Positions 1 through 10,740 of a stretch of 10,740 bases of DNA are shown here, one piece after another. The first letter of the stretch is position 1; the number at the start of each line of letters is the position of its first letter. Under the pieces are notes generated by a model. That model had not been told where the DNA came from. It did not search any database and was given only the letters and a program-made list of their open reading frames with translations. The translations under genes were made by a program, and so were the position numbers. Origin of the DNA: a virus (lineage: Duplodnaviria; Heunggongvirae; Uroviricota; Caudoviricetes); IMG/VR virus record IMGVR_UViG_2579779116_000010, positions 1 to 10,740 of that record. One strand, 5' to 3'.

Positions 1-332
1 TCCCCGCCCCATTCGATGGCAGTTCCCAGCTCTGCGGCAGCCTGCTTAAATGCCTGCGCGATTTTCTCGTACAGAGGCCAGTCCCATGACACCTGGCTGC
101 CAACCCAGGCCACAACATCCACCGCATCACCGGTCAGGTGGCGGCTGTTCATGGTCTGGCTCTTGCCTTCTGCAACCAGCTGTTTCTGGCGTTCTTTCGT
201 GCGCAGGCCTTCCGTAATACCGAAATCAACCTCCGTCAGCTCCAGCGCACGGCGAACGACAGCAACCAGCTGTGGTTTAACGCCCTCCAGATTTTTCTCG
301 CTCCGACGACTGAATCTGAATTTACCCGACAT
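1..332 (-). CDS. Endolysin, peptidase M15 family (L-Ala-D-Glu / VanY-type peptidase), 5' part only; continues beyond the window start
   Basis: Minus-strand ORF with ATG at 330-332 and SD GAGGTG about 5 nt upstream, open to the window edge (so absent from the ORF track). Translation MSGKFRFSRRSEKNLEGVKPQLVAVVRRALELTEVDFGITEGLRTKERQKQLVAEGKSQTMNSRHLTGDAVDVVAW... contains the S-x-H-x3-D-x2-D zinc-site signature typical of M15 peptidases. It directly follows two membrane-protein genes. Confidence 0.7.
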   Translation of the reverse strand, partial: MSGKFRFSRRSEKNLEGVKPQLVAVVRRALELTEVDFGITEGLRTKERQKQLVAEGKSQTMNSRHLTGDAVDVVAWVGSQVSWDWPLYEKIAQAFKQAAAELGTAIEWGG

Positions 333-334
333 AT

Positions 335-610
335 TCACCTCAACAATGGAAAGATTTTTGTGACGTTCCCGCGTGCGCGTATCACCAGCACGCAGAACAG
401 CAGATTAAAAAACACTTCCAGCCAGCCCGTTGCTAACGGGCGACCACACAGATAGCTGAGGGGCGCAAAGGCATACAGCAGCATCAGCAGCCAGGCCAGC
501 CATGACATCAGCGGTTTGTGCGTGGCATCTTTTCGGCGATAAAAAAAGAACGTCAGCACGATAACCGTGCATAACGCCACATTCAGCAATCCGGGAAGGT
601 TACTTAACAT
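335..610 (-). CDS. Small membrane protein of the lysis cassette (putative holin or antiholin), 91 aa
   Basis: ORF-track ORF 335..610. ATG at 608-610 preceded by GGAGG about 7 nt upstream. Two to three hydrophobic helices (LPGLLNVALCTVIVLTFFFY, WLAWLLMLLYAFAPLSYL, WLEVFFNLLFCVLVI). Its start overlaps the stop of the upstream membrane-protein gene and its stop lies 2 nt before the endolysin start. Family not recognised. Confidence 0.5.
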   Translation of the reverse strand: MLSNLPGLLNVALCTVIVLTFFFYRRKDATHKPLMSWLAWLLMLLYAFAPLSYLCGRPLATGWLEVFFNLLFCVLVIRARGNVTKIFPLLR

Positions 611-992
611 TGCCGCCTCCTCCGCCCCTCAGGCGGGAGAACAGGCCGGACACCAGTGATGCGATATCCTGCTGGTGGATGAATGACAGAATCTTCACTG
701 ACACCACCGATACCAGCACCGCACACAGCGCATCTGCCGATGTACCGTCATACCCTGTTTTTGATGTAATCCAGGCTGACAGTACACGTGCTCCCAGCAC
801 GCCGACGATAAACGACACCAGAAAATGCGCCGCCACACGCCAGGCGGAAATCTTCTGCGGCACAGTTGCCACAAACAAAGCCCCCGCGAACGCACCAAAC
901 ACAATCCCGAAATCCGTTCCGGTGAACAGCCCGAATACCGTCGCCCCTCCGAGCGCAGCCGCCGTGCCGGAACCGGATAAGGGTTCAGACAT
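600..992 (-). CDS. Gly/Ala-rich multi-helix membrane protein, putative holin, 130 aa
   Basis: Part of ORF-track ORF 600..1064, re-started at the internal ATG 990-992 (MSEPLSGSG...) because it has AGGAG 8 nt upstream and a minus-strand terminator at 1012-1033 lies inside the longer ORF. Gly/Ala-rich transmembrane segments (GGATVFGLFTGTDFGIVFGAFAGALFVA, AHFLVSFIVGVLGARVLSAWI, ALCAVLVSVVSVKILSFI). First gene of the lysis cassette. Confidence 0.5.
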   Translation of the reverse strand: MSEPLSGSGTAAALGGATVFGLFTGTDFGIVFGAFAGALFVATVPQKISAWRVAAHFLVSFIVGVLGARVLSAWITSKTGYDGTSADALCAVLVSVVSVKILSFIHQQDIASLVSGLFSRLRGGGGGNVK

Positions 993-1011
993 ACTTTTTT
1001 CTCCTGTAAAT

Positions 1012-1033
1012 AAAAAAGGGCCACCAGCGGCCC
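1012..1033 (-). terminator. Intrinsic terminator-like hairpin immediately upstream of the holin-like gene
   Basis: Plus strand aaaaaa GGGCC accagc GGCCC (1012-1033). On the minus strand this reads as a 5-bp GC stem followed by T6. Confidence 0.4.
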
Positions 1034-1161
1034 GTAAAAAACACCCCGTCAAAAGCACCGGCATCCGCAGATGCCCTTTGCGTGGCGTTATTTGATGCGC
1101 GCCAGATGTGGCGCAAAGAAATGAAATAAGACTTATCGGAAATTAAGGTTAATTTGAGGAT

Positions 1162-1189
1162 TTGAACCACTTATGAAGCTTAGTAGAAT
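1162..1189 (+). promoter_or_regulatory. Candidate sigma-70 promoter (TTGAAC-N16-TAGAAT) for a plus-strand small transcript
   Basis: TTGAAC at 1162-1167, 16-nt spacer, TAGAAT at 1184-1189. Lies about 120-150 nt upstream of the plus-strand terminator at 1311-1343. No ORF with an RBS follows. Confidence 0.3.
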
Positions 1190-1195
1190 GAACAT

Positions 1196-1343
1196 GTCCC
1201 CGGAAGGGGCCAATACTTATTATTCTTCATGGACTTTGTCCCGCGGTCTTAATCCGACGACCACGCTACTTTTCACCCTCTCGCAAATTGCTATCTAAAG
1301 AACGTTGTCCCACGAGTATTCCTGGATGCTCGTGTCTTTTTTT
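1196..1343 (+). ncRNA. Candidate small RNA (about 150 nt) between promoter-like element and intrinsic terminator
   Basis: Predicted transcript from about 1196 to the terminator at 1311-1343. Has a 5'-proximal GC hairpin (CCCCGGAAGGGG, about 1197-1210). The only internal ORF (34 codons) lacks an SD. Identified from signals only, not homology. Confidence 0.25.
1311..1343 (+). terminator. Intrinsic terminator, plus strand
   Basis: CACGAG (1311-1316), 12-nt loop, CTCGTG (1329-1334), then TCTTTTTTT (1335-1343). Confidence 0.45.
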
Positions 1344-1356
1344 GTCCTGAGAAAGG

Positions 1357-1385
1357 AATAAAAAAAACCGCCAGATATGGCGGTT
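1357..1385 (-). terminator. Strong intrinsic terminator, minus strand
   Basis: Minus strand reads AACCGCCA-tatc-TGGCGGTT followed by a run of about 9 T (plus-strand A-run 1357-1367, stem 1366-1385). Convergent with the plus-strand terminator 12 nt away. Confidence 0.6.
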
Positions 1386-2319
1386 GGTCAATGCAAGGGA
1401 TGAATTTTTTAATTGTTATTAAACCGAGGCGCCGGGTGCCTCCCGAAGTATTCCGTGCTGTATGGATACTGTGGTTTCCCGCTAAACCGACTCTATAAAC
1501 CACCCTCGCGCTGAGGAACGCCCCAATTCATGTTTTTCAACACAGAGAAGCGCATCACTGGTTACTCAACGCTAAATCCGGCTTCCTGTCGTGGGCAATG
1601 CGCCATTTCTGTGTCATAAAAAAATACAGCACTGAATCCGTAACCGATCTCCATTACAGAATGAGGCCCAACAAAGGAATTAACGAGATCTGTTCCTCAC
1701 AAAAAACGCCAGTGCTGTAAAAACTCATCAAAGAACAATGAATGTGCGGAGAACAGGAATCGAACCAGTATCACTAACCTAAAAGGCTGAAGTAATAGCC
1801 ACTGTACGATACCTGTATATAGAGCGGGCCTCCGTAACCACAGTAATGATACTATAACAATATGATTAAACGGATGCCAGCAATGACCCGCGAGGCAGCT
1901 GGTCATGCGCCAGCGAACACAGACTCGCTGCCTTTTGGGTCGGGAGTAATATTACCGATAAATCATATGACATCAAAAAATAATTGGTTTTAAGATTTTA
2001 ATATGTGTATAAATATGTATCAGATAAATACAAATTATTTTATTTCATCCAGAATTCTGATTTTACGCAAGAGATTGCTAAAAAATAACACAAACATGAT
2101 CGGTTTGGGAACAAACCAATTCCGTTGTCGCAATAAATAACAGGAAATACTCCGGGCACAACGGAGCGCAAGAATTACATCAGCAGTGGTTTTTGTAACG
2201 TTTAACGTTAATTGTATCGTTGATAGAAAAGCTTTGACGCAATATAGTGAACTAACAGGGCCTGACGAATAGCCCTATTACGCCGAGCTAATAGCGCTGC
2301 CAGCTAAACTTGCATGGAA

Positions 2320-2396
2320 TGGTCCGCCACCGAGGACTCGAACCTCGCACCATCAACTTAGAAGGTTGATGCTCTATCCCGATGAGCTAGTGGCGG
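2320..2396 (-). tRNA. tRNA-Arg, anticodon UCU (reads AGA), 77 nt with encoded CCA
   Basis: Reverse complement CCGCCAC-TA-GCTC-ATCGGGATA-GAGC-A-TCAAC-CTTCTAA-GTTGA-TGGTG-CGAGG-TTCGAGT-CCTCG-GTGGCGG-A-CCA folds as a cloverleaf: 7-bp acceptor stem, D stem GCTC/GAGC, anticodon loop CU-UCU-AA, T loop TTCGAGT. Resembles E. coli argU and the argN-type tRNA of lambdoid/Stx phages. Confidence 0.85.
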
Positions 2397-2397
2397 T

Positions 2398-2473
2398 TGG
2401 TGGCCCTTGCTGGATTTGAACCAGCGACCTGGCGATTATGAGTCGCTCGCTCTCACCACTGAGCTAAAGGGCC
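2398..2473 (-). tRNA. tRNA-Ile2 (anticodon CAU, lysidine type; formally Met-like), 76 nt with encoded CCA
   Basis: Reverse complement GGCCCTTTAGCTCAGTGGTGAGAGCGAGCGACTCATAATCGCCAGGTCGCTGGTTCAAATCCAGCAAGGGCCACCA. Cloverleaf with anticodon loop CT-CAT-AA. Very close to my recollection of E. coli ileX/ileY; corresponds to ileZ of lambdoid phages. Separated from tRNA-Arg by 1 nt. Confidence 0.85.
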
Positions 2474-2590
2474 GGGCGCAGGATAATAACGTTACAAAAT
2501 CAATGTTGCAAGCATTCAAAAATCACCTGGTTAAAAATCCCCCTTACTTCCTCCACCAGCGCATTCACCATGTCTATCCGAGATAAGTGG

Positions 2591-2630
2591 CACAAAAAAC
2601 CCGCATTTGGGCGGGTTTTGTTTGCTTTTG
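2591..2630. terminator. Bidirectional intrinsic terminator; on the minus strand the tR'-like terminator of the late leader
   Basis: AACCCGC (2598-2604), loop atttgg, GCGGGTT (2611-2617). T-rich tract follows on the plus strand (2618-2630) and an A-run precedes it (2591-2598), which reads as T-run on the minus strand. Confidence 0.6.
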
Positions 2631-2670
2631 CCATCACGTACAAAATCGGCAAAATATCAGATTTGCATGA

Positions 2671-2699
2671 AATATATGCCTTTCAATCTACTTTTGCAA
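2671..2699 (-). promoter_or_regulatory. pR'-like late promoter (TTGCAA-N17-TATATT) overlapping the 3' end of the Q-like gene
   Basis: Minus strand -35 TTGCAA (plus 2694-2699), 17-nt spacer, -10 TATATT (plus 2671-2676). Predicted start near 2664, about 70 nt upstream of the tR'-like terminator. This matches the lambda Q/pR'/tR' arrangement. Confidence 0.45.
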
Positions 2700-3372
2700 C
2701 ACTTTGCTTTGAAAATGCCGCCTTTTGTTTTGAACGCGTTCTCATTACAAACAATAAAGCCCCACTATCCAGTCGGTAAAAAATGTGTTTCATTGCAACC
2801 CAGTGACGAGTAAATGTTTTGGACCAGTTTTTAGTTGTCACTCCCGCCAGTAATGCCAGCTCCTGGTATTCATAACCTTCCCCACCAAAAAGTTCTGCTT
2901 TTACTGCCTGCGCCGCCAGCCAGATTAATTTTTTCAGGCGTTCCTGCGTTTTCCCTGCAATTTTTCTGGTACCGGATTGAGTATTAAATTCATTCCACGC
3001 CCACTGTGTTATCGCGATCTGATATTCCCAACAAATACTCCCGCTGTAACACCACAACAACCAGGCTTTATGATGTTCTTCAAGAGACAGAACAGCCCGC
3101 CGCCACGATGATGTCGAAAACTCAACCGGACTGACCAGAGGAATTGACGTCCCCTTCGCCAGCGATTGTTTCCCCGGGATTGGTGGATTATCCCGCGTAA
3201 TCATTTTTCCGGTCACTTCATCTCGGTACCGGATTTTTTTACGCCTGTAACGCCCTGTATCAAACATGGCATTCTCCTGCCAGGCTTCAAGCTGACCTTT
3301 TGTTGCCCCACTCAAATCAGCGGTGGCGATAATGAGCTGCTCACGCACAAACTGTAAATACTGGTTATTCAT
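2683..3372 (-). CDS. Putative late-gene antiterminator (Q-like), 229 aa
   Basis: ORF-track ORF 2683..3378, trimmed to the ATG at 3370-3372, which overlaps the rusA stop as ATGA. Assigned by position only: directly downstream of rusA and directly upstream of the pR'/tR' module and phage tRNAs. I could not confirm family membership from the sequence. Confidence 0.5.
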   Translation of the reverse strand: MNNQYLQFVREQLIIATADLSGATKGQLEAWQENAMFDTGRYRRKKIRYRDEVTGKMITRDNPPIPGKQSLAKGTSIPLVSPVEFSTSSWRRAVLSLEEHHKAWLLWCYSGSICWEYQIAITQWAWNEFNTQSGTRKIAGKTQERLKKLIWLAAQAVKAELFGGEGYEYQELALLAGVTTKNWSKTFTRHWVAMKHIFYRLDSGALLFVMRTRSKQKAAFSKQSVAKVD

Positions 3373-3734
3373 GCGCACTCCAGTTCTGTGATTTTTATCC
3401 CCAGCCGCCCACCAGGAACGAGCTGACCGCGCACAATATTGATTTCATCAAACTGCTCGTCGTCTATAAGTAGTCCGGCATGCGTCAGCGCATCCAGTGG
3501 TGCCTTCAGGATATTGTCCAGGTCGCGGCGGCGCTTATCCGGTGGCTCCGCAATAATCTTTATCGCCAGCCTTCCGGACAGGTTTAATTTCAACCGCTGC
3601 TGGCGAACAATAAGCGCCACATCACGGCGATAACGCTCACCGGCTTTTGATACAAAATATGTGCTGCCACGACGTCGCCAGTAAGTGTTCACCGTTGGCG
3701 GGTAAGGCAAAACAAATTCTATGCGTTCAGTCAT
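3369..3734 (-). CDS. rusA: Holliday-junction resolvase RusA (crossover junction endodeoxyribonuclease), 121 aa
   Basis: ORF-track ORF 3369..3734. MTERIEFVLPYPPTVNTYWRRRGSTYFVSKAGERYRRDVA...PDKRRRDLDNILKAPLDALTHAGLLIDDEQ...GGRLGIKITE aligns motif by motif with E. coli RusA as I recall it (LPxPPSxNxYY, PDRRRRDLDN, DALT, DD, GGRL, ITE), including the catalytic Asp cluster. Confidence 0.85.
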   Translation of the reverse strand: MTERIEFVLPYPPTVNTYWRRRGSTYFVSKAGERYRRDVALIVRQQRLKLNLSGRLAIKIIAEPPDKRRRDLDNILKAPLDALTHAGLLIDDEQFDEINIVRGQLVPGGRLGIKITELECA

Positions 3735-4793
3735 TCATGCTTTCCACTTCAGGACACCCGAATTTCTCGCGTGCATTAAAAAACGAATCAGCAACAACAG
3801 CTGGCTGCCGTGTTTTTCTTCAAAATCTTTTACCCCGGCGTGCAGTTCGTTATGACATTTACGGCACAGCGGAATAACAAACAAATCATCAGCCTTTGTT
3901 CCCATCCCTCCCAGTCCATGACCAATGATGTGATGCGGATCATCTGCCTGATTACCGCACGTCATGCATTTCTGCGTTTTTACCCAGCGCGTGTATACAG
4001 GCATCTCTTCCCGTTGTGGTTTCTGGCGCTGGAGATACTGAGTCGGTGACTCCGGATCAACAGCAATGCTGACCACCGTCTTTTCCTGTGGCGGGTTCTG
4101 TTGCTGGTGGGCGTGAGGCAGCGGCGCAAGATTTTTTGTGCGCTGTTTCAGTATGCTGGTGGCGGTCTGCTCTCCCGGTACGATGTCGCTTTCACGGTAC
4201 ATTGAGCGGATTTTTTCCGCACGCAACCCCAGCGAACGACGTAATACCACTTCCGGTAGCGCGTCCGCCACCTGATTGCGGACCGCCCACCAGGATAATT
4301 CAGCCAGAGATAATTCACGCTCCTGCGTACCGCTTATTGCGTGACCGATGACGTCAATCATCCATGCTGACAGGTTTTGATGAGCAAGTTGCTCGAGTGA
4401 TTCGGATGTCTGGTCACGCAGCTGGTTGTCGCAGTGCCAGCACAACACCATTGCGCCGGTACCATAACGGTGAATAACGGTTTCGCTGTGATGATAATCG
4501 CCGTGTGGCCACTGGCAGGATTTAACATGACGCAGGAGCCAGTCAGACAGTGCACCAGCGCCGCCGGCAGCACGAATCACCCGCTCATCGCTGAAAAATG
4601 GCAGCAGAGATTTGTCTTCTGCCAGCGGCTGGCGAACGGCAGGAACGACCCCGGACGGCAGACCGCGCATGCTTTTTGGCTCCGGTTCAACCAGCACTCT
4701 GCCGTTATGGAATACCTGCATGGATTCACGACCTGGCTTAAGGACCACCAGCCCGAGTTCCGGTACCGGAACAGGTCGAAGTAATACGCGCAC
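3735..4793 (-). CDS. ydfU: DUF968-type protein with C-terminal HNH-like zinc-finger motif (YdfU-like), 352 aa, GTG start
   Basis: ORF-track ORF 3735..4793. GTG start with GGAG 5 nt upstream. C-terminus CMTCGNQADDPHHIIGHGLGG...IPLCRKCHNELH has a CxxC...HH...CxxCH pattern. The size and its position between a small ORF and the nin/Q region match my recollection of Qin ydfU; the gene symbol is by synteny only. Confidence 0.6.
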   Translation of the reverse strand: MRVLLRPVPVPELGLVVLKPGRESMQVFHNGRVLVEPEPKSMRGLPSGVVPAVRQPLAEDKSLLPFFSDERVIRAAGGAGALSDWLLRHVKSCQWPHGDYHHSETVIHRYGTGAMVLCWHCDNQLRDQTSESLEQLAHQNLSAWMIDVIGHAISGTQERELSLAELSWWAVRNQVADALPEVVLRRSLGLRAEKIRSMYRESDIVPGEQTATSILKQRTKNLAPLPHAHQQQNPPQEKTVVSIAVDPESPTQYLQRQKPQREEMPVYTRWVKTQKCMTCGNQADDPHHIIGHGLGGMGTKADDLFVIPLCRKCHNELHAGVKDFEEKHGSQLLLLIRFLMHARNSGVLKWKA

Positions 4794-4794
4794 G

Positions 4795-5067
4795 TTATCT
4801 CCAGATTCGTTGCTGGAATGTGCGGGACGGGCGTGGTGGGCGTTCGGAATAAGGGAGCCTGACGTAGATTATCCAGTGACGATAATCGAGGCTGAGAGCT
4901 TTCCTAAACTCATACCCACGTCTGCGGTAGTTATGAATCAGCCATTCGGCCTGTTCTTCAGTGCAGGGGTCATGCTGGTACCAGTCACATTTGAATGTGT
5001 GAGGGCGCCGCCCGTGCCCGCTGGCAAGGTCGGTATCAGAATTGTGATGTTTGGTATTGTGCGCCAT
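4795..5067 (-). CDS. Hypothetical protein, about 90 aa, in the position that rem occupies in Qin
   Basis: ORF-track ORF 4795..5148 uses a TTG start that lies inside the terminator at 5138-5165, so I shortened it to the first ATG (5065-5067, MAHNTKHH...). SD is weak (AGAGA). The stop abuts the GTG start of the DUF968 gene. No recognisable motif. Confidence 0.35.
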   Translation of the reverse strand: MAHNTKHHNSDTDLASGHGRRPHTFKCDWYQHDPCTEEQAEWLIHNYRRRGYEFRKALSLDYRHWIIYVRLPYSERPPRPSRTFQQRIWR

Positions 5068-5137
5068 CGGTTGTCTCTGCTGGCGCAGCAGGTGCCAGTT
5101 GTTCAGGCTGGCATGCGTATTGTAAACCAGAATGCCA

Positions 5138-5165
5138 GAAAAAAACAAAACCCGCCGAAGCGGGT
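5138..5165 (-). terminator. Intrinsic terminator downstream of the lipoprotein gene
   Basis: Minus strand reads ACCCGC-TTCG-GCGGG-TTTTGTTTTTTT (plus 5139-5165): 5-bp GC stem, UUCG tetraloop, T-rich tail. Confidence 0.6.
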
Positions 5166-5294
5166 ATGCTAAAACAAACTGAAGGTAATATGCCGGACTT
5201 GTAAAGGAACGATAGAATAATTATCGGATTAAATCCTGACTCAATCCATAGGGTTTACAGCGTTTTCACTAATAATTTACCGTCCCGCTATACA

Positions 5295-5687
5295 TTACTG
5301 CCCTGTTTTAACGAAGTTTTTAAAGGAAACAACTGCCTGATAGGGGTTTGGTTGACAGCCAAACATATTGTCGCAAAAAGGCTTGATGAAAATTCTTGAG
5401 GATCCATCTTCATTTGGCATTTTACTCACTTGATAAGCGAGGAATGGACTATTTGGAGAGGGATTATAAGTGGAAATTAGCGTGTCTGTCGCCGTTTGAA
5501 TTTTCCATGAGGAATTATTAGCCAACCAGAATTGCGCTCGTTTCCAATAAAAGTCACATTGCTTTTCATCATTACATGTTAGTGGCTTCATTGCTTCTGC
5601 TTTCAACGCTGGATCGACCTTTGCTGCACACCCTCCCAACATTACTGTTGCAATCATTACACCTGCGACTAAAACAAGTTTCTTCAT
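5295..5687 (-). CDS. Lipoprotein, 130 aa (signal peptide with lipobox LGG-C, mature part with four further Cys); moron-like
   Basis: ORF-track ORF 5295..5687. MKKLVLVAGVMIATVMLGGC... is a classic type II signal peptide with lipobox. Visibly more AT-rich than the flanking genes. Bracketed by terminator-like hairpins at 5745-5765 and 5138-5165. No family recognised. Confidence 0.7.
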   Translation of the reverse strand: MKKLVLVAGVMIATVMLGGCAAKVDPALKAEAMKPLTCNDEKQCDFYWKRAQFWLANNSSWKIQTATDTLISTYNPSPNSPFLAYQVSKMPNEDGSSRIFIKPFCDNMFGCQPNPYQAVVSFKNFVKTGQ

Positions 5688-5744
5688 CTCCCTGCCCCAT
5701 CAATAAAAGTTCGGTTCTCTAATAACTAGAGTTAATCAACGGAA

Positions 5745-5765
5745 AAAACGCCGAAGCGGGTTAAG
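5745..5765 (-). terminator. Weak intrinsic terminator-like element downstream of hokD
   Basis: Minus strand CCCGC-TTCG-GCG-TTTTTT (plus 5743-5761): short 3-bp stem with UUCG loop and T6. Shares the exact 13-mer CGCCGAAGCGGGT with the terminator at 5153-5165. Confidence 0.3.
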
Positions 5766-5830
5766 TGCGGGTGCGTTGAGGATGCCTGACACATCAGAGG
5801 TGGCGAGGGATTTCTCCCCCGCCAGGTCTC

Positions 5831-5986
5831 TTACTCCTCAGGTTCGTAAGCTGTGAAGACAGCGACCTCCGTCTGGCCGGTTCGGATTCGTACCTCGCAG
5901 AGGTCTTTCCTCGTTACCAGTGCCGTCACTATGACGGTTAAACAGATGACGATCAGGGCGATTAACATCGCCTTTTGCTGCTTCAT
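5831..5986 (-). CDS. hokD: Hok-family type I toxin HokD (RelF), 51 aa
   Basis: Not in the ORF track (under 60 aa). Reverse complement of 5831-5986 translates to MKQQKAMLIALIVICLTVIVTALVTRKDLCEVRIRTGQTEVAVFTAYEPEE, which matches my recollection of K-12 HokD. It lies directly downstream of relE, as in the relBEF operon. Confidence 0.85.
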   Translation of the reverse strand: MKQQKAMLIALIVICLTVIVTALVTRKDLCEVRIRTGQTEVAVFTAYEPEE

Positions 5987-6057
5987 AGCCTGCTTCTCCT
6001 GTCAACGCAAAGCAGAAGTGTCACCTTCGGTGCGAAACAGAGATGTCATGCTTTGGT

Positions 6058-6345
6058 TCAGAGAATGCGTTTGACCGCCTCGCTATATACTTCCGAGCGT
6101 TCTCTTTTCCCAACAGAAATCACGAAAACGACAACTTTCTCGTCTATAACCTGGTATACAAGGCGATAGCCTGAAGACCGGAGCTTAATCTTGTAACAAT
6201 CAGGCATACCACGGAGCTTGTTTGCTTCAATCCGGGGTGACTCAAGTACTTCAACCAGCTTCTTTTTCAACTGTTCACGTACCGTCGAGCCCAGCTTTCG
6301 CCATTCCTTTAGTGCCCGCTCGTCAAAATCCAGAAAATACGCCAT
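6058..6345 (-). CDS. relE: RelE mRNA-interferase toxin, 95 aa
   Basis: ORF-track ORF 6058..6345. MAYFLDFDERALKEWRKLGSTVREQLKKKLVEVLESPRIEANKLRGMPDCYKIKLRSSGYRLVYQVIDEKVVVFVISVGKRERSEVYSEAVKRIL is essentially the K-12 RelE sequence as I recall it. Its start overlaps the relB stop (TGATG). Confidence 0.92.
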   Translation of the reverse strand: MAYFLDFDERALKEWRKLGSTVREQLKKKLVEVLESPRIEANKLRGMPDCYKIKLRSSGYRLVYQVIDEKVVVFVISVGKRERSEVYSEAVKRIL

Positions 6346-6584
6346 CAGAGTTCATCCAGCGTCACACGTACTGGCTTAGGATTACGAAGCCGTTCTTTCA
6401 CTATCTCCACAAGTTCAGCATCTTCATCACTCAGGAGTGTCTGTTTGAACGGCAAGCGTTCATTGTCAGCGATATACTCGAGCATGAGACGAAGCGCTTC
6501 AGAAGGAGTTACACCCATTTTTTCAAGCGCGGCGTAAGAACGCGCTTTAAGTTCATCGTCAATACGCAGGTTAATGCTACCCAT
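6345..6584 (-). CDS. relB: RelB antitoxin, 79 aa
   Basis: ORF-track ORF 6345..6584. MGSINLRIDDELKARSYAALEKMGVTPSEALRLMLEYIADNERLPFKQTLLSDEDAELVEIVKERLRNPKPVRVTLDEL matches my recollection of K-12 RelB, with a ribbon-helix-helix N-terminus. Confidence 0.92.
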   Translation of the reverse strand: MGSINLRIDDELKARSYAALEKMGVTPSEALRLMLEYIADNERLPFKQTLLSDEDAELVEIVKERLRNPKPVRVTLDEL

Positions 6585-6596
6585 GTCTTACACCTC

Positions 6597-6648
6597 TTGT
6601 AATTACAAATGTCATTACAAGTATCGCACTACAACATGCTTAGGGCAA
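6597..6648 (-). promoter_or_regulatory. relBE promoter with relO operator (hexad repeats)
   Basis: Minus strand -35 TTGCCC (plus 6643-6648), 17-nt spacer, -10 GATACT (plus 6620-6625). Downstream lies TTGTAATGACATTTGTAATTACAAG (plus 6597-6621), containing TTGTAA/TTACAA-type hexads as described for the RelB operator. Confidence 0.7.
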
Positions 6649-6914
6649 GTCACGAAGGAAGTCAGAAAGTAGTCGTAAGAACGGTGATCACTGTCCGCTT
6701 TGTGCCAGGAGCAGCCATTGCTAAGTCCATCCTGTATTGTGCAGGTCAGCTCGTTTTTAAAGAGTCCGGCCATCATCTTACTGGTACAGACACCATATAC
6801 TTTGTGACGGTCAGGCTACATATGCACAACTCAACTTATTCATCTATTTTTTGCTTTAGCATGTCAGTGTTGCTTTCTCGTCGGCGGGTGAGCGGTGACC
6901 TGACCTGTCGATAA
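6609..6914 (+). CDS. ydfV: Doubtful ORF, 101 aa, in the position and size of K-12 ydfV
   Basis: ORF-track ORF 6609..6914. Same length as I recall for YdfV, between relB and flxA. It starts inside the relBE promoter/operator, has no convincing SD, and its composition is not protein-like (MSLQVSHYNMLRASHEGSQ...). Listed for completeness. Confidence 0.2.
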   Translation: MSLQVSHYNMLRASHEGSQKVVVRTVITVRFVPGAAIAKSILYCAGQLVFKESGHHLTGTDTIYFVTVRLHMHNSTYSSIFCFSMSVLLSRRRVSGDLTCR

Positions 6915-7066
6915 AGGAACGTAACACGTTTTATGCAACACCCGCATGCGGCAGAAAATTATTGCCGAACGTTTACCCCTGTCAACAAGCTTTACTTTCT
7001 GAGGCGCGCCAGCCCGCGAGGAAAACAATCTGAACATCAAACAATTAATGACACAAGAAATACGAT

Positions 7067-7093
7067 TAAAGATTTTTTTGTGCATGCCGATAG
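7067..7093 (+). promoter_or_regulatory. Sigma-28 (FliA) class 3 promoter of flxA
   Basis: TAAAGATT (7067-7074), 11-nt spacer, GCCGATAG (7086-7093), versus the consensus TAAAGTTT-N11-GCCGATAA. SD AAGGAG at 7105-7110, ATG at 7117. Confidence 0.75.
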
Positions 7094-7116
7094 TGCTTTT
7101 TTAAAAGGAGAAATCT

Positions 7117-7449
7117 ATGTCTGTCACAATTCAGGGAAATACCTCAACCGTTATTTCAAACAACTCCGCCCCGGAAGGAACATCAGAAATAGCCAAAATC
7201 ACAAGACAAATTCAGGTGCTGACTGAAAAGCTTGGGAAAATCTCATCGGAAGAGGGGATGACGACACAGCAGAAAAAAGAAATGGCTGCATTGGTACAGA
7301 AGCAAATTGAAAGCCTCTGGGCTCAACTGGAGCAGTTGTTAAGGCAGCAGGCAGAGAAAAAGAATGAAGACGCGACAGTTCAGCCTGATAAAAAAGAAGA
7401 GAAAAAAGACGATACAAATACCGCTGGCACCATTGATATTTACGTCTAA
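7117..7449 (+). CDS. flxA: FlxA, FliA-regulated protein of unknown function, 110 aa
   Basis: ORF-track ORF 7117..7449. Strong SD. Coiled-coil-like, Lys/Glu/Gln-rich sequence (MSVTIQGNTSTVISNNSAPEGTSEIAKITRQIQVLTEKLGK...). Position next to relB and the sigma-28 promoter match K-12 flxA as I recall it. Confidence 0.85.
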   Translation: MSVTIQGNTSTVISNNSAPEGTSEIAKITRQIQVLTEKLGKISSEEGMTTQQKKEMAALVQKQIESLWAQLEQLLRQQAEKKNEDATVQPDKKEEKKDDTNTAGTIDIYV

Positions 7450-7463
7450 GTGACAGCCGTATT

Positions 7464-7490
7464 GTGGCCCTCATCGGGCCACTTTTCGCC
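7464..7490 (+). terminator. Intrinsic terminator of flxA
   Basis: GTGGCCC (7464-7470), loop tcatc, GGGCCAC (7476-7482), then TTTT. Starts 15 nt after the flxA stop. Confidence 0.6.
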
Positions 7491-7759
7491 ATCAGCCTTT
7501 TCTTTAAAGACATATTATCTTTGTATCATTTCTGATAGTTAACATTACAAGATATAAGTAATGGACGCACTCCCAATTAGTCTATTTAAATCGCCACGAG
7601 TTTAACTGACAACCCATGATCAATTATGAATTGCAACTATTTCTGTAGTCACTTTTGTGGGGACAGTCCACAAAACTGCCAACTTCCGCTTCTTGCTCTT
7701 AGCGGACATTAGCATAGGCTATTTACCATAACGCCTCATTACGCGCACCGCCCAGACTG

Positions 7760-9270
7760 ACTCAGCGCGTTTCTGGCATATCCCCGGTAAAACAAGTAAC
7801 AAACCACCCGAAAATGAACACCAGAAACGCGACTTAAGAATCTACCCTATGAATGGATATGCACTCAACCGAATCGATCTTGGTTTCAATCTTTTTTATC
7901 GGGATCAGGCTTCTTTTTAGGTAACTTCGGGGGCTTAACTTGCTGATGACTTTGCGTTCGGCGCGTAAGCCAGGGATGGTCAGCTTTAGGTTTAACATAG
8001 TATTTTGAGCGTAAATCAATACGGGCATTATCCACTCGTTCATGGACACTCTTTTCATCATCCGGTGGTATAGGCTCCGGGCCATCAACATACTTTTCCC
8101 AGCCCAGCGCTTTCCCGTCATACAGAACGTTAATTTCACCGTCAAAGTTCTCGCATACAGTAACAACCGAATGCCTAAGTCGATATCCCCGGCCCTCACT
8201 GCGTACCTGAAACGCACTGCTTTTGTACTGGAAAGTGAGATTTTTAGACAGAACGCGCTTCGCCTGTAGGCTGAAGATATAACCCAGTTCCTCTTCAGAA
8301 TGGTGCACATCAAGATGAGCATTATCAGTAGTACGAGGCGACGTAGCGAACCGGTTGTTATAGGCTTCAATAAAGGTCGGCAACCATGCATTTGCTGTTT
8401 CAATATCACTGATATTCTGAAGCCGCATTTCTTTGACCAGCCTGTCCTGTAGTGTCTGATTGGCGCGCTCTACCCGCCCTTTTGCCTGCGGGCTGTTGGC
8501 ATGGATTGGCTCGATGCCCAGTGTCTTTATCGCACGAGTGAACTGGGTCAGCTCACCTTCCCGCTCTGGGTTATTTACCCTGAATATACTGTGTCTATCA
8601 GAGTAGAGAGCGAGCGGTACGCCATGATCATTAAGGTAACCCCGGAGGGTTTCCATGTAAGCCCGGGTTGTTTCAGCAGGCACAAAACGCAACGCCATCA
8701 ACGCACTGGTGGCATCATCAATGAAAACGATCAGTGTACATCTGGGGCCTCGATTTTCAAACCAGTCATGAGGTGAGCCATCAATCTGGATCAGTTCACC
8801 GTAAGATGGTCGTCGCATGCGGCGTTGATATATACGGGCAATTTTACGACGGCGTTCACGCCATAACCCCTCTTCTATCATCCACTTTCTGAGAGTTTCA
8901 ACGGATAAAGATAAACCGTGTATCTCGCGCAATTTTTCGCACGCAAACGTAGGTCCAAAATCAGCGTAACGGCCTTTGAGGAGTGAAATTACTGTTGCTC
9001 TGAATTCAGTAGAAAAGGAATTATTAGGACGCTTTCCACGTCGGTGGGAAACCAGACCAGAAGGCCCTTCATTTCTATACCGTTGCACCAGACGTTTAAC
9101 CTGCCGAATAGAAATGCCAATGCGTGCCGCAGCTTGTTCCTGAATAATCTGAAGTCGGTGGAGTTCCTTATGACTCATCGTAACAGTCTCTTTGATCATG
9201 AAAAATCCCCCAGAGAATTGTCTGGGGACATTTTAGAATGGTTCAAAGGGGACATTACAGCTTGGTGTTA
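7760..9270 (-). mobile_element. Insertion sequence carrying the DDE transposase; boundaries approximate
   Basis: Transposase gene plus flanking repeat-rich DNA: an 11-bp perfect inverted repeat CGCGTTTCTGG / CCAGAAACGCG at 7766-7776 and 7821-7831, and two GGGGACATT direct repeats at 9224-9232 and 9249-9257. I could not identify matching terminal inverted repeats or a target-site duplication. Confidence 0.3.
7886..9199 (-). CDS. DDE transposase (rve / integrase-core type, N-terminal HTH), 437 aa; IS481- or ISNCY-like, family not resolved
   Basis: ORF-track ORF 7886..9199. N-terminal HTH-like region (SHKELHRLQIIQEQAAARIGISIRQVKRLVQRY). Catalytic triad candidates are D in LIQIDGSPHDW, D in ALYSDRHSIF and E in GRVERANQTLQDR with basic residues after the E. 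Single long ORF with SD GGGGGA. Confidence 0.8.
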   Translation of the reverse strand: MIKETVTMSHKELHRLQIIQEQAAARIGISIRQVKRLVQRYRNEGPSGLVSHRRGKRPNNSFSTEFRATVISLLKGRYADFGPTFACEKLREIHGLSLSVETLRKWMIEEGLWRERRRKIARIYQRRMRRPSYGELIQIDGSPHDWFENRGPRCTLIVFIDDATSALMALRFVPAETTRAYMETLRGYLNDHGVPLALYSDRHSIFRVNNPEREGELTQFTRAIKTLGIEPIHANSPQAKGRVERANQTLQDRLVKEMRLQNISDIETANAWLPTFIEAYNNRFATSPRTTDNAHLDVHHSEEELGYIFSLQAKRVLSKNLTFQYKSSAFQVRSEGRGYRLRHSVVTVCENFDGEINVLYDGKALGWEKYVDGPEPIPPDDEKSVHERVDNARIDLRSKYYVKPKADHPWLTRRTQSHQQVKPPKLPKKKPDPDKKD

Positions 9271-9533
9271 ACAATAGCCTGCTTCTCCGTGCCTTTCGGC
9301 ACGTAAGAGGCTAACCTACATGTGTCTAGCATGAAATTGGCCTCAGATTAATGTTAAGCGTCTTGCAGGACGCGTAATGTTAACTGGGGCTTTTCTCTAT
9401 CTGCCGTTGGTGTCCATGCCCGAGGCAGATAGCCTCAAGCACCCGCAGTCATTCTACTTAACTAAGATTTCCCCGCAAACCGTTTTTGTCCAGCACAGTA
9501 AATATCCAACTAAACCAATGGAGTTCGCTGTAT

Positions 9534-9713
9534 TTACCGCCAGTATTCAATGCACATGACCGCCATGAACACCCCTAAAAAAAGGGCATTTATATATCCA
9601 AATATTAATATCAAAACATCAACTTTTTCCATATACCTTGCTGTGAAGATGATGGGCATACATGATGCGAACAACCAGAACGCAACAAACAAAAACTGCA
9701 ATGCGTTTTTCAT
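9534..9713 (-). CDS. Small two-helix membrane protein, 59 aa
   Basis: Part of ORF-track ORF 9534..9752, re-started at the internal ATG 9711-9713 because AGGAGG lies 4 nt upstream (GTAGGAGGAATA-ATG). MKNALQFLFVAFWLFASCMPIIFTARYMEKVDVLILIFGYINALFLGVFMAVMCIEYWR has two hydrophobic helices. Embedded in an AT-rich island. No family recognised. Confidence 0.45.
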   Translation of the reverse strand: MKNALQFLFVAFWLFASCMPIIFTARYMEKVDVLILIFGYINALFLGVFMAVMCIEYWR

Positions 9714-9967
9714 TATTCCTCCTACAATCAATGTGCAATTACATTTAAACACACCTCAATTTGGCCGGACATATAAATATCTAAACCAGAAAAAATCACT
9801 TACATAGCGTTACAAACTCTTTAGTCTAAAGGTTCATCGTAAAACATTCCCCATACTTATCAGTCCGTTCCGCGCCAGGTAGCTCATTGCCTTATCTGGC
9901 AACCTGTAATCAGGTTTCCGCTTTTTCAGTTGGCTGGTCGTTTAACCGACATAGTTAATCCATTAAT

Positions 9968-10255
9968 CTAGTTGCCGGATGTTGGTGGATTTTCGCGTTT
10001 TAGTTGTTCATAAAAGTGCACAGCTTTAACCAGTTCTTCTGATGTAACTGGGACTGGTGAGGCAGTGAATAAGGCCTGAATTTGATAGTTCGGCCTGTCG
10101 TTACAATCCTCTTTTTTCGGTACATATTTCCAGTCACCAGACCACTACTTCCCCTGAAAGTCCGTAACGCCTTTTTTCACGTAGCGATATCGCCATGCCA
10201 CTGGTTTTGCTTGCCCCGCCGTTTCATGCCCTTCCTGATAATTAATCTCGCTCAT
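9968..10255 (-). pseudogene. 95-codon gene interrupted by an in-frame TAG at codon 37 (36-aa ORF, then a 58-codon open continuation)
   Basis: ATG at 10253-10255 overlaps the upstream stop as ATGA. MSEINYQEGHETAGQAKPVAWRYRYVKKGVTDFQGK-TAG-WSGDWKYVPKKEDCNDRPNYQIQALFTASPVPVTSEELVKAVHFYEQLKRENPPTSGN-TAG. The TAG is at plus 10145-10147. Confidence 0.35.
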
Positions 10256-10443
10256 TCATCGCCCCACTCATCACAATATGCTTCGACCGGAGTTTTTCCC
10301 GCTTCATAGTCATCACGCTAGGATTCGACATCAGCAGCACTTCCACCGCGTAACTCACCATAGTCCATTAATAGTTCATCCCGCTCTTCAAAACTGATGT
10401 TATATTTAGCTGAACAAAAATCAGCCACTTTGTTCTTCCTCAT
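10252..10443 (-). pseudogene. 63-codon acidic gene interrupted by an in-frame TAG at codon 42; its final stop overlaps the start of the next gene
   Basis: ATG at 10441-10443. MRKNKVADFCSAKYNISFEERDELLMDYGELRGGSAADVES-TAG-RDDYEAGKTPVEAYCDEWGDE-TGA. The TAG is at plus 10318-10320. The terminal TGA (10252-10254) overlaps the downstream ATG as ATGA. Confidence 0.3.
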
Positions 10444-10492
10444 CGTCTTTTATTTCGTGGTATGAGTAATTGCAGTAGTTAAAGAAAATTTC

Positions 10493-10603
10493 TTATGCTC
10501 CGTCATGAATTTCCTCAGGTGTTGCGTCATCGTCCACTTCGAATACATCCTCAAAATCTCCACCAGCTATTCCCGTTTCAATAATAATTTTGAACTTTCG
10601 CAT
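10493..10603 (-). CDS. Short acidic ORF, 36 aa
   Basis: ATG at 10601-10603. MRKFKIIIETGIAGGDFEDVFEVDDDATPEEIHDGA. An AGGAGG lies 24 nt upstream, with a 6-bp GC hairpin (CCGCCC-gaaa-GGGCGG, plus 10611-10626) in between. Coding status uncertain. Confidence 0.2.
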   Translation of the reverse strand: MRKFKIIIETGIAGGDFEDVFEVDDDATPEEIHDGA

Positions 10604-10740
10604 TTCACTACCGCCCTTTCGGGCGGCCTCCTGATGTTCTGAGGGTGCAGAAATCCATCCGGTTAAGGATTAAATTTTATTTACAGAACTGAATTTAACT
10701 ATTCAGATATACGTATCTGTGATCTTACCCAGCAATAGTG

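Follow-up and report, generated by a model that had tools for sequence, protein, structure and literature searches.

The stretch analyzed here, positions 1–10,740 of the virus record IMGVR_UViG_2579779116_000010 (the window; 10,740 nucleotides), represents a lambdoid prophage late region, which reads along the minus strand, and the element in question is a candidate small RNA (sRNA) gene that lies on the plus strand between the phage tRNAs and the holins. Comparison with its homologues makes it probable that positions 1161–1343 (plus strand) are a genuine RNA gene. The original prediction, made from the sequence of the window alone, had proposed in this place a non-coding plus-strand RNA of approximately 150 nt, antisense to the Q-dependent late transcript; this proposal is now supported by a conserved promoter, covarying hairpins, the lack of a conserved open reading frame (ORF), and the 3′ end of a paralogue from Escherichia coli K-12. 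The explanation that we favor, on balance, is a self-contained prophage sRNA gene with a product acting in trans.

Signals at the locus

The sRNA locus sits in a non-coding stretch of 1.3 kb that separates the tRNAs from the holins, 200–400 bp upstream of the first holin. It comprises the following elements:

1008–1033, minus strand: intrinsic terminator, directly upstream of the holin Shine–Dalgarno sequence and ATG (992)
1139–1156, no strand assigned: inverted repeat GAAATTAA-GG-TTAATTTG, read from the sequence
1161–1189, plus strand: sigma-70-type promoter, with the −35 box TTGAAC at 1162–1167, a spacer of 16–17 bp, and the −10 box TAGAAT at 1184–1189
1196–1211, plus strand: predicted transcription start, G1196, placed by conservation, and hairpin H1 (CCCC-GGAA-GGGG)
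1212–1230, plus strand: A/U-rich stretch AAUACUUAUUAUUCUUCAU, unpaired in the folds and in the consensus structure
1231–1241, plus strand: hairpin H2, GGAC-UUU-GUCC, from the covariation alignment
1242–1273, plus strand: hairpin H3, CGCGGUC, a 10-nt loop UUAAUCCGAC and GACCACG, followed by CUAC-UUUU
1274–1310, plus strand: 3′ extension of subtype A, CACCCUCUCGCAAAUUGCUAUCUAAAGAACGUUGUCC, included in the long RNA form
1311–1343, plus strand: second intrinsic terminator from the terminator scan, with a 10-pair stem (1311–1334) followed by UCUUUUUUU
1357–1385, minus strand: convergent intrinsic terminator, AACCGCC-loop-GGCGGUU (stem 1385–1366) followed by U8, conserved with variation in the loop

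A scan of the sequence recovered the signals on which the original prediction was built, namely, the sigma-70-like promoter (TTGAAC-16-TAGAAT, 1162–1189, plus strand), the 5′ GC hairpin (CCCC-GGAA-GGGG at 1198–1209), the plus-strand terminator at 1311–1343 with TCTTTTTTT running up to 1343, and two minus-strand terminators, of which the one nearer to the holin consists of a stem (1033–1018) and T6, extends down to 1008, and abuts the holin Shine–Dalgarno sequence. The convergent terminator was also found in its predicted place, with the gap between the two tails corrected from 12 to 13 nt (1344–1356). The internal hairpin with a U tract at 1242–1273 had been missed; it is the usual terminator of the family.

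Conserved structure of the RNA

Homologues were collected in alignments of 28 and then 83 distinct sequences, to which the counts of variants given below refer, and a covariance model, R1, was built from helices H1, H2, and H3. R1 scores 60–107 bits in every related locus; in the window, whose copy is in the seed alignment, it scores 93.9 bits over 1196–1277, with the full-length pattern of H1, a variable stretch, H2, H3 with the loop UUAAUCYGAC, and a U run. The bases proposed to pair do so in 94.6% of 811 cells, compared with 40–54% if the partners are slid by one to three columns, and the covariation score of 0.239 (0.144 ± 0.009 in shuffles) was reached in none of 500 shuffled alignments.

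Changes on both sides of a pair are seen at six pairs, located in H1 and H3. Hairpin H1, present in the minimum-free-energy fold, is paired in 94.3% of cells, with both partners changing in three of its six pairs (CCCC/GGGG, CUCC/GGAG, UCUCC/GGAGA). The H3 stem-loop (1242–1265) has a seven-pair stem, paired in 92% of cells, with both-sided changes in three pairs (UC/GA to CU/AG and G-C to A-U), and its loop is almost invariant in the family. Hairpin H2, paired in 99.5% of cells, shows a single kind of change, from C-G to U-G in four sequences, and is identical in the K-12 copy. Relatives down to 45–70% identity, as well as the K-12 copy, keep the promoter, H1, H2, and H3 in register.

The sequences fall into subtypes. 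The window represents subtype A; subtypes B and C differ from it in the sequence after H3, subtype D has a different 5′ half, and subtype E is a second, diverged copy present in some prophages. Between H1 and H2, the unpaired stretch 1212–1230 has been exchanged as a whole in subtypes D and E, locus L011, and K-12, with its flanks retained, which suggests it as a candidate target-pairing (seed) region.

The family ends in one of two ways. Hairpin H3 is the usual intrinsic terminator, yielding an RNA of approximately 80–90 nt, because it is directly followed by U6–9 in subtypes B–E and in K-12, and because the subtypes cease to resemble each other immediately past the H3 U run, where recombination breakpoints fall. 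In subtype A the tract after H3 is CUAC-UUUU, and the window copy also has a C·A mismatch in the H3 stem; since the U run is interrupted and short and the stem is mismatched, H3 of the window copy would be read through, giving a predicted main 3′ end near 1343 and an RNA of approximately 148 nt. Such an RNA would include the extension 1274–1310, which is conserved among the subtype A copies; subtypes C and D have unrelated sequence in its place, as does subtype B in part, and a degraded relative of it follows the K-12 terminator. The stem of the second terminator changes in step among the subtypes (AGU/GCU, GAC/GUC, GGC/GUC, GGG/CCC), and its plus-strand fold is the more stable one in nine of ten variants (−12.7 vs −7.5 kcal/mol for the plus and minus strands in the window). 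Only on the plus strand do H3 and the second hairpin lead into U runs. Together with the promoter and the K-12 data, these U runs are the basis for assigning the RNA to the plus strand.

Promoter and upstream repeat

In the −10 box, T1184, A1185, A1188, and T1189 are invariant, with neighboring positions varying freely, so that the boxes TAGAAT, TAGTAT, TAATAT, and TAAAAT all occur among the homologues; the −35 box is ATTTAAAC in most relatives. Also invariant, amid freely varying neighbors, is G1196, the seventh base after the −10 box. Across the family, the conserved promoter stands at a fixed distance from this predicted start at the base of H1, and its geometry is the same in subtype D, in subtype E (TATACT), and in the K-12 copy (TAGTAT).

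Upstream of the promoter lies a perfect 7-bp inverted repeat, AAATTAA-GG-TTAATTT (1139–1156), centered approximately 48 bp upstream of the predicted start. All subtypes retain it, the K-12 copy does so in part, and its mean majority fraction is 0.91; it may be a regulator-binding (operator) site or an UP-like element.

A relative in the E. coli chromosome

With a subtype B query, the H2–H3 segment matches 5354 of 5426 complete E. coli genomes, K-12 included, and the match lies in the spacer between yodB and serU. The homologue in K-12 is located as follows:

NC_000913.3, 2,043,079–2,043,181, plus strand (3080–3182 of locus L141; also 2443–2547 of locus L140): K-12 homologue of the window RNA

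R1, whose seed alignment does not contain K-12, scores 57.3 bits in this spacer (E = 7e-12). The promoter block is homologous to that of the prophage copies (AAGACTTATC..AGGTTAATTT..ATTTAAACC..TAGTAT), a 5′ hairpin is present, H2 is identical, and H3 with its loop is nearly identical, one loop base being different, whereas the 5′ stretch differs (CGAAAUUCAACAACUCUUGGAAAUU). The promoter and the RNA (171 nt in total) are found at 95% identity or more in 5418 of the 5426 genomes and are never annotated; in particular, the NC_000913.3 annotation has nothing at this place, and a literature search on the sequence and on yodB/serU yielded no mention of an RNA. Identity with RyeG was considered and rejected, since RyeG lies in CPS-53.

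The Term-seq data for strain MG1655 contain, in two of three condition tables, an "orphan" 3′ end at 2,043,181 on the plus strand (Adams et al., 2021; PMC7815308, Supplementary file 1). In the K-12 copy, this is where the U6 run that follows H3 ends, at its last U. Because the 3′ end falls exactly there, a member of the family is transcribed in vivo from the strand that was predicted and stops at the terminator expected for it. From the predicted start at 2,043,091, the K-12 RNA would be approximately 91 nt long, with a single terminator. Unlike the prophage copies, the K-12 copy is chromosomal, single-copy, nearly universal, and not antisense to a phage operon.

Coding capacity

The claim that the interval holds no ORF with a ribosome-binding site has to be restated: an ORF of 41 codons exists at 1173–1298 on the plus strand, yet no ORF is conserved. 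The ATG of this ORF lies upstream of the predicted start of the RNA and is present in seven of the 83 variants; single-base insertions and deletions shift the frame, and the ORF length at this site varies from 26 to 73 codons among the homologues. Inside the RNA, the longest closed ATG-initiated ORF has at most seven amino acids in 79 of the 83 variants, and no conserved small ORF was found on either strand among the homologues compared. It had been considered that the region could turn out to be a conserved fragment of a protein-coding gene; this was looked for in related prophages, and no such fragment was seen.

"Hypothetical proteins" have been called across the spacer on either strand of related loci (L002, 3177–3302; L003, 2997–3122; L033, 2579–2890; L034, 2484–2897). 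We rejected both kinds of protein gene that these calls imply. On the minus strand, the calls of the Prokaryotic Genome Annotation Pipeline (PGAP) in L033 and L034 extend across the terminator and align with the window in three different frames, and the similarity is therefore at the DNA level only. On the plus strand, the 41-amino-acid protein, called by PGAP in one genome, is not conserved. "Hypothetical proteins" annotated over this spacer are thus likely miscalls.

These data bear directly on the suggestion that the transcript encodes a small and possibly toxic protein or is the antitoxin RNA of a type I toxin–antitoxin pair. There are precedents, as the prophage RNA RyeG proved to encode YodE (PMC7498339), and, apart from the PGAP call, the window has a hok/sok locus elsewhere. 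Nevertheless, with a start codon that precedes the predicted transcript and is seldom kept, variable ORF length, frameshifting indels, internal ORFs of at most seven amino acids in 79 of the 83 variants, and no conserved ORF opposite, we find this suggestion barely credible, the least probable of those considered here.

Distribution and behavior of the module

The block 1005–1520 travels together and is found in approximately 300–410 of the 5426 complete E. coli genomes, many copies being more than 90% identical. The family as such occurs in roughly 5% of these genomes, mostly other than classical enterohemorrhagic (EHEC) or enteropathogenic (EPEC) E. coli; the carriers found are commensal, porcine, murine, and enterotoxigenic (ETEC) genomes. 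In a collection of isolated phages, two records only carry the element. A scan of one genome per species, with a pattern that excluded the K-12-type loop AATCTGAC, retrieved only a prophage copy in Escherichia ruysiae.

The neighbors of the element vary. At least three types of holins adjoin it (the two-holin type in the window, class II or S-like holins elsewhere), as well as four types of Q or methylase genes, and the sets of tRNAs beside it also differ between prophages. At the same time, wherever a holin, TerB, Q, or methylase neighbor was detected among 137 occurrences, it is on the strand opposite to the RNA, the lysis-side genes being behind its 5′ end and Q or the methylase ahead. With this constant orientation beside varying holin, Q, and tRNA neighbors, the element behaves as a mobile module that is always inserted at one place and in one direction. 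The terminator 1008–1033 travels with the module beside different holin types, and late transcription must cross it in order to reach the holin.

Some prophages have, approximately 1 kb from the first copy and in the same orientation, the second copy that defines subtype E, with R1 scores of 60–62 bits; this copy has a promoter of its own (TTTAAAC-17-TATACT) and shows additional compensatory changes in H3:

L087, 1960–2048, minus strand: subtype E copy
L137, 4464–4552, minus strand: subtype E copy
L119, 6806–6892, plus strand: subtype E copy

An insertion of approximately 680 bp at window position 1091/1092 is present in two viral contigs (L009, about 803–1479; L030, about 700–1377), and this site marks a module boundary between the holin-proximal terminator block (1000–1092) and the sRNA block (1091 onward).

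The fixed placement fits an explanation purely in cis, in which plus-strand transcription, by collision with leaky late-direction transcription, or the RNA, by perfect pairing with the late leader approximately 200–350 nt before the holin, would act together with the two minus-strand terminators to silence the holin in the lysogen or to time lysis. The antisense orientation upstream of the first lysis gene has no exception in the 137 occurrences wherever a neighbor was detected, whatever the holin type, and the RNA is bracketed by the minus-strand terminators 1357–1385 and 1008–1033 within a block that moves as a whole. Action in cis alone would, on the other hand, need no conservation of the primary sequence, yet H2 and the H3 loop are nearly invariant, K-12 included; the K-12 copy, present in 99.9% of E. 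coli genomes, makes an RNA with no late operon running through it; the 5′ stretch is swapped as a unit between subtypes, suggesting specificity in trans; and some prophages hold two copies about 1 kb apart. We therefore consider regulation in cis only to be unlikely.

A probable convergent sense-strand partner

The terminators on either side of the locus had been regarded as its insulation. The convergent one is real and conserved, but rather than serving as mere insulation it probably belongs to a second, sense-strand sRNA: the terminator 1357–1385 is probably the 3′ end of a transcript coming from the tRNA/pR′ side, whose body would occupy the adjacent interval:

1386–1560, minus strand: body of the candidate sense-strand partner RNA, conserved across loci

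The candidate partner contains CGGGAGGCACCCGGC at 1445–1431, an exact 15-nt match to the hairpin of STnc100 from strain Sakai, at a similar distance from the 3′ end. The Rfam model of STnc100 (RF02076) scores 13.5 bits on the partner in the window and 17.5 bits in L035, far below its gathering score of 47. The partner may be a diverged relative of STnc100/PasD, which we treat as a lead.

In subtype C, the convergent neighbor is an odd tRNA-like gene of 82 nt (called as Val-aac or Tyr-ata), not an STnc100-like RNA:

L052, 1469–1550, minus strand: tRNA-like gene of subtype C
L087, 795–876, plus strand: tRNA-like gene of subtype C

Proposed mechanism and its weighing

Under the explanation of a self-contained, trans-acting sRNA gene, the sigma-70 promoter would drive transcription from G1196 in the lysogen. 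The RNA would begin with the protective hairpin H1, continue with the unpaired variable stretch, and then enter the H2–H3 module; in the window, most transcripts would pass H3 and stop near 1343. The gene would be the antisense member of a convergent sRNA pair at the moron site downstream of pR′. H2, H3, and the U tail would serve as a terminator and as a scaffold for binding a chaperone, Hfq or ProQ, and the RNA would function in trans, either as a regulator that base-pairs with its targets or as a decoy that captures another sRNA, with specificity set by the variable 5′ stretch. The role in trans is proposed by analogy with AsxR and AgvB, which are analogues by position, and that the window RNA acts by base pairing in trans is a tentative suggestion, to which we give slightly less than even weight.

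A number of observations weigh against this interpretation. The promoter scores nine out of 12, and the window contains 20 sites of this kind (14.4 ± 3.3 in shuffles); the promoter match by itself is thus ordinary, no better than chance, and the case rests on conservation. The conservation itself is partly a matter of ascertainment in the H2–H3 module, as most loci were fetched by a pattern inside it (the K-12 copy, with the same module, was found independently by blastn), and alignment A4, used for the covariation analysis, was fitted to model R1. The G·U pairs are indecisive as to the strand of H1–H3 (767 vs 752 of 811 cells paired on the plus and minus strands, respectively), and in the window copy H3 pairs better on the minus strand. 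The thermodynamic z-scores of the window copy, −0.9 and −0.5, are unremarkable, with other members of the family reaching −3.2. The in vivo evidence is from the K-12 paralogue, namely, its mapped 3′ end. Further, the best-conserved part of the RNA is the structured 3′ module and not the putative seed, which is unusual for a seed-driven sRNA. Finally, no duplex predicted with the holin start, the start regions of the window, the K-12 paralogue, the convergent partner, GcvB, or FnrS rose above shuffles, although this test is weak, since the AsxR control did not rise above them either.

Some of these observations could be accommodated if no functional RNA were made, the terminators and hairpins insulating the tRNA/moron units from the lysis genes and the conservation reflecting recent descent of a mobile block. 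In favor of such an explanation, terminator-like sites are enriched in the window (24, compared with 11.2 ± 3.1 in shuffles), many copies have high identity, and the promoter score is ordinary. It does not account for H1, which is not a terminator and keeps its pairing through at least three different stem sequences, for the invariance of the key −10 bases amid freely varying positions, for the retention of the promoter and H1–H3 in register by the distant relatives and K-12, or for the K-12 3′ end, which shows a plus-strand transcript reaching H3. We regard it as quite improbable.

Similarly, the near equality of pairing on the two strands, the H3 stem of the window, which closes fully on the minus strand only, and the fact that late transcripts must cross the region would fit a role of the hairpins on the minus strand, as an element of processing, stability, or antitermination in the late leader before the lysis genes. 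Against this stand the U runs, which follow the hairpins on the plus strand only, the lower stability of the second hairpin on the minus strand in nine of ten variants, and the conserved promoter and the K-12 3′ end, both on the plus-equivalent strand, so that a minus-strand role appears very improbable. Insulation, a minus-strand leader element, and a small-protein mRNA all fit the data worse than regulation in cis only, which is the main rival of the trans-acting sRNA.

A more far-reaching version of the trans-acting sRNA would link the prophage copies with the chromosome: the nearly universal sRNA by serU would have prophage paralogues that keep its promoter and 3′ module, swap the 5′ specificity stretch, and tap into, compete for, or redirect the protein partner or regulon of this core RNA. 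We find this version rather doubtful; if true, it would mean that host and phage share a modular scaffold with an exchangeable seed, placed at the gate of the lysis cassette. More generally, the link to an unannotated RNA in essentially every E. coli, K-12 included, makes the family easy to study, and both the role of the core RNA and the question of whether the phage copies mimic it or compete with it become testable in K-12.

Genomic setting of the window

The genes that delimit the interval are as follows:

3378–2683, minus strand: antiterminator Q
2473–2320, minus strand: two tRNAs with anticodons cat and tct, from the tRNA search
992–600 and 610–335, minus strand: two holins

The chromosome of E. 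coli PEC41 has a near-identical segment (99.8% identity), which continues with an M15 endolysin. The mouse M-series strains are carriers of this prophage as well. The tRNA at 2398–2473 (minus strand, anticodon CAT) is called Met by ARAGORN and annotated in RefSeq as tRNA-Ile in the near-identical PEC41 segment; it occupies the position of ileZ in Shiga toxin (Stx) phages. A degenerate tRNA-like sequence at 1745–1816 (minus strand), scoring 22.4 bits against a gathering score of 29 and not called by ARAGORN, is probably a decayed third phage tRNA.

Closer to Q, a strong bidirectional terminator is located at 2596–2619, approximately 65–90 bp past the Q stop codon (2683), and a promoter-like sequence TTGCAA-17-TATATT at 2699–2671 (minus strand), near the end of Q. 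The two look like pR′ and tR′, which would give rise to a late-leader RNA, short and constitutive, before the tRNAs. Far from the sRNA locus, the antisense RNA sok was identified by Rfam at 9273–9444 (minus strand, 104 bits); a hok/sok-type toxin–antitoxin locus is present in the early region of the prophage.

Comparison with known RNAs

The original prediction had considered a new sRNA plausible, and this is supported: Rfam 15 has no matching family, either at the gathering threshold on the whole window or in E-value mode on 950–2400 and three related loci, its only matches being the tRNAs and sok, and the family is also unnamed in the literature searched.

One known plus-strand RNA opposed to late transcription in the lambdoid interval between Q and S is IpeX of DLP12 and PA-2, located in the 3′ untranslated region of nmpC or lc. 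This candidate was rejected, as the window has no similarity to the Q–nmpC–essD interval of DLP12 and no porin gene upstream.

Convergent pairs of Hfq-bound sRNAs have been described at the moron site downstream of pR′ (Tree et al., 2014; PMC4104026). We re-derived this layout in Sakai prophage Sp5, where the ends of STnc100 (sense) and AsxR (antisense) are 1 nt apart; the corresponding gap in the window is 13 nt. The window RNA resembles AsxR and AgvB in that it lies downstream of pR′ and Q, is antisense to the late/moron transcript, and converges with a sense-strand sRNA. Moreover, AsxR and AgvB (EcOnc01–03), anti-sRNAs of the EHEC lambdoid prophages, consist, like the RNAs of the window family, of a conserved 3′ and a variable 5′ portion (PMC4104026). 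Their models, RF02703 and RF02702, have no match at the gathering score in the window and none with E up to 10 in 950–2400 and two subtypes, although the same search, used as a positive control, gives AsxR 88 bits in Sakai; these models cover the conserved 3′ portion of approximately 42 nt. In turn, R1 has no hit in the stx2 locus of Sakai or in DLP12. The window RNA also differs from AsxR and AgvB in its length (80–148 nt compared with 51–60 nt), in having a 5′ hairpin, and in the conserved 10-nt loop of its terminator.

The place and orientation of the window RNA are shared by PasA and PasC (EcOnc51/52), which are intergenic, before a holin, and opposite to the late operon; PasA directly precedes the holin, and transposase insertions lie between PasC and its holin (PMC8550237, Table S6). 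Both end in intrinsic terminators, and tandem terminators give PasA a short form of 85 nt and a long one of 236 nt (PMC8550237, Table S6; preprint 10.64898/2026.05.13.724894). No sequence relationship was seen: PasA, PasB, PasC, and PasD, taken from the published coordinates, give only chance matches of 8–14 nt in blastn-short, and R1 with the filters off scores at most 8.4 bits in three loci of E2348/69 holding pasA, pasC, pasD1, and pasD2 (the pasB locus was not included). PasA and PasC differ from the window RNA in the upstream neighbor as well, a SASA esterase instead of tRNAs. The carriers differ too: enrichment in EPEC and EHEC is typical of the Pas RNAs, and the window family comes from genomes of commensal, porcine, murine, and ETEC strains, with a relative in the core genome. 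On the other strand, STnc100/PasD (EcOnc27, EcOnc13) takes the sense-strand place in the convergent pair, as does the minus-strand partner in the window.

The prophage sRNAs of the pR′ moron site (AsxR, AgvB, Pas, STnc100) rewire host regulation in pathogenic E. coli, and a further family is added to them here. Two features of Hfq-dependent base-pairing sRNAs, an intrinsic terminator with a U tail and an unpaired A/U-rich region, are both seen in the window RNA. Thus, as a prophage sRNA at the pR′ moron site, it represents a known type of system, while the family itself is new to Rfam 15.

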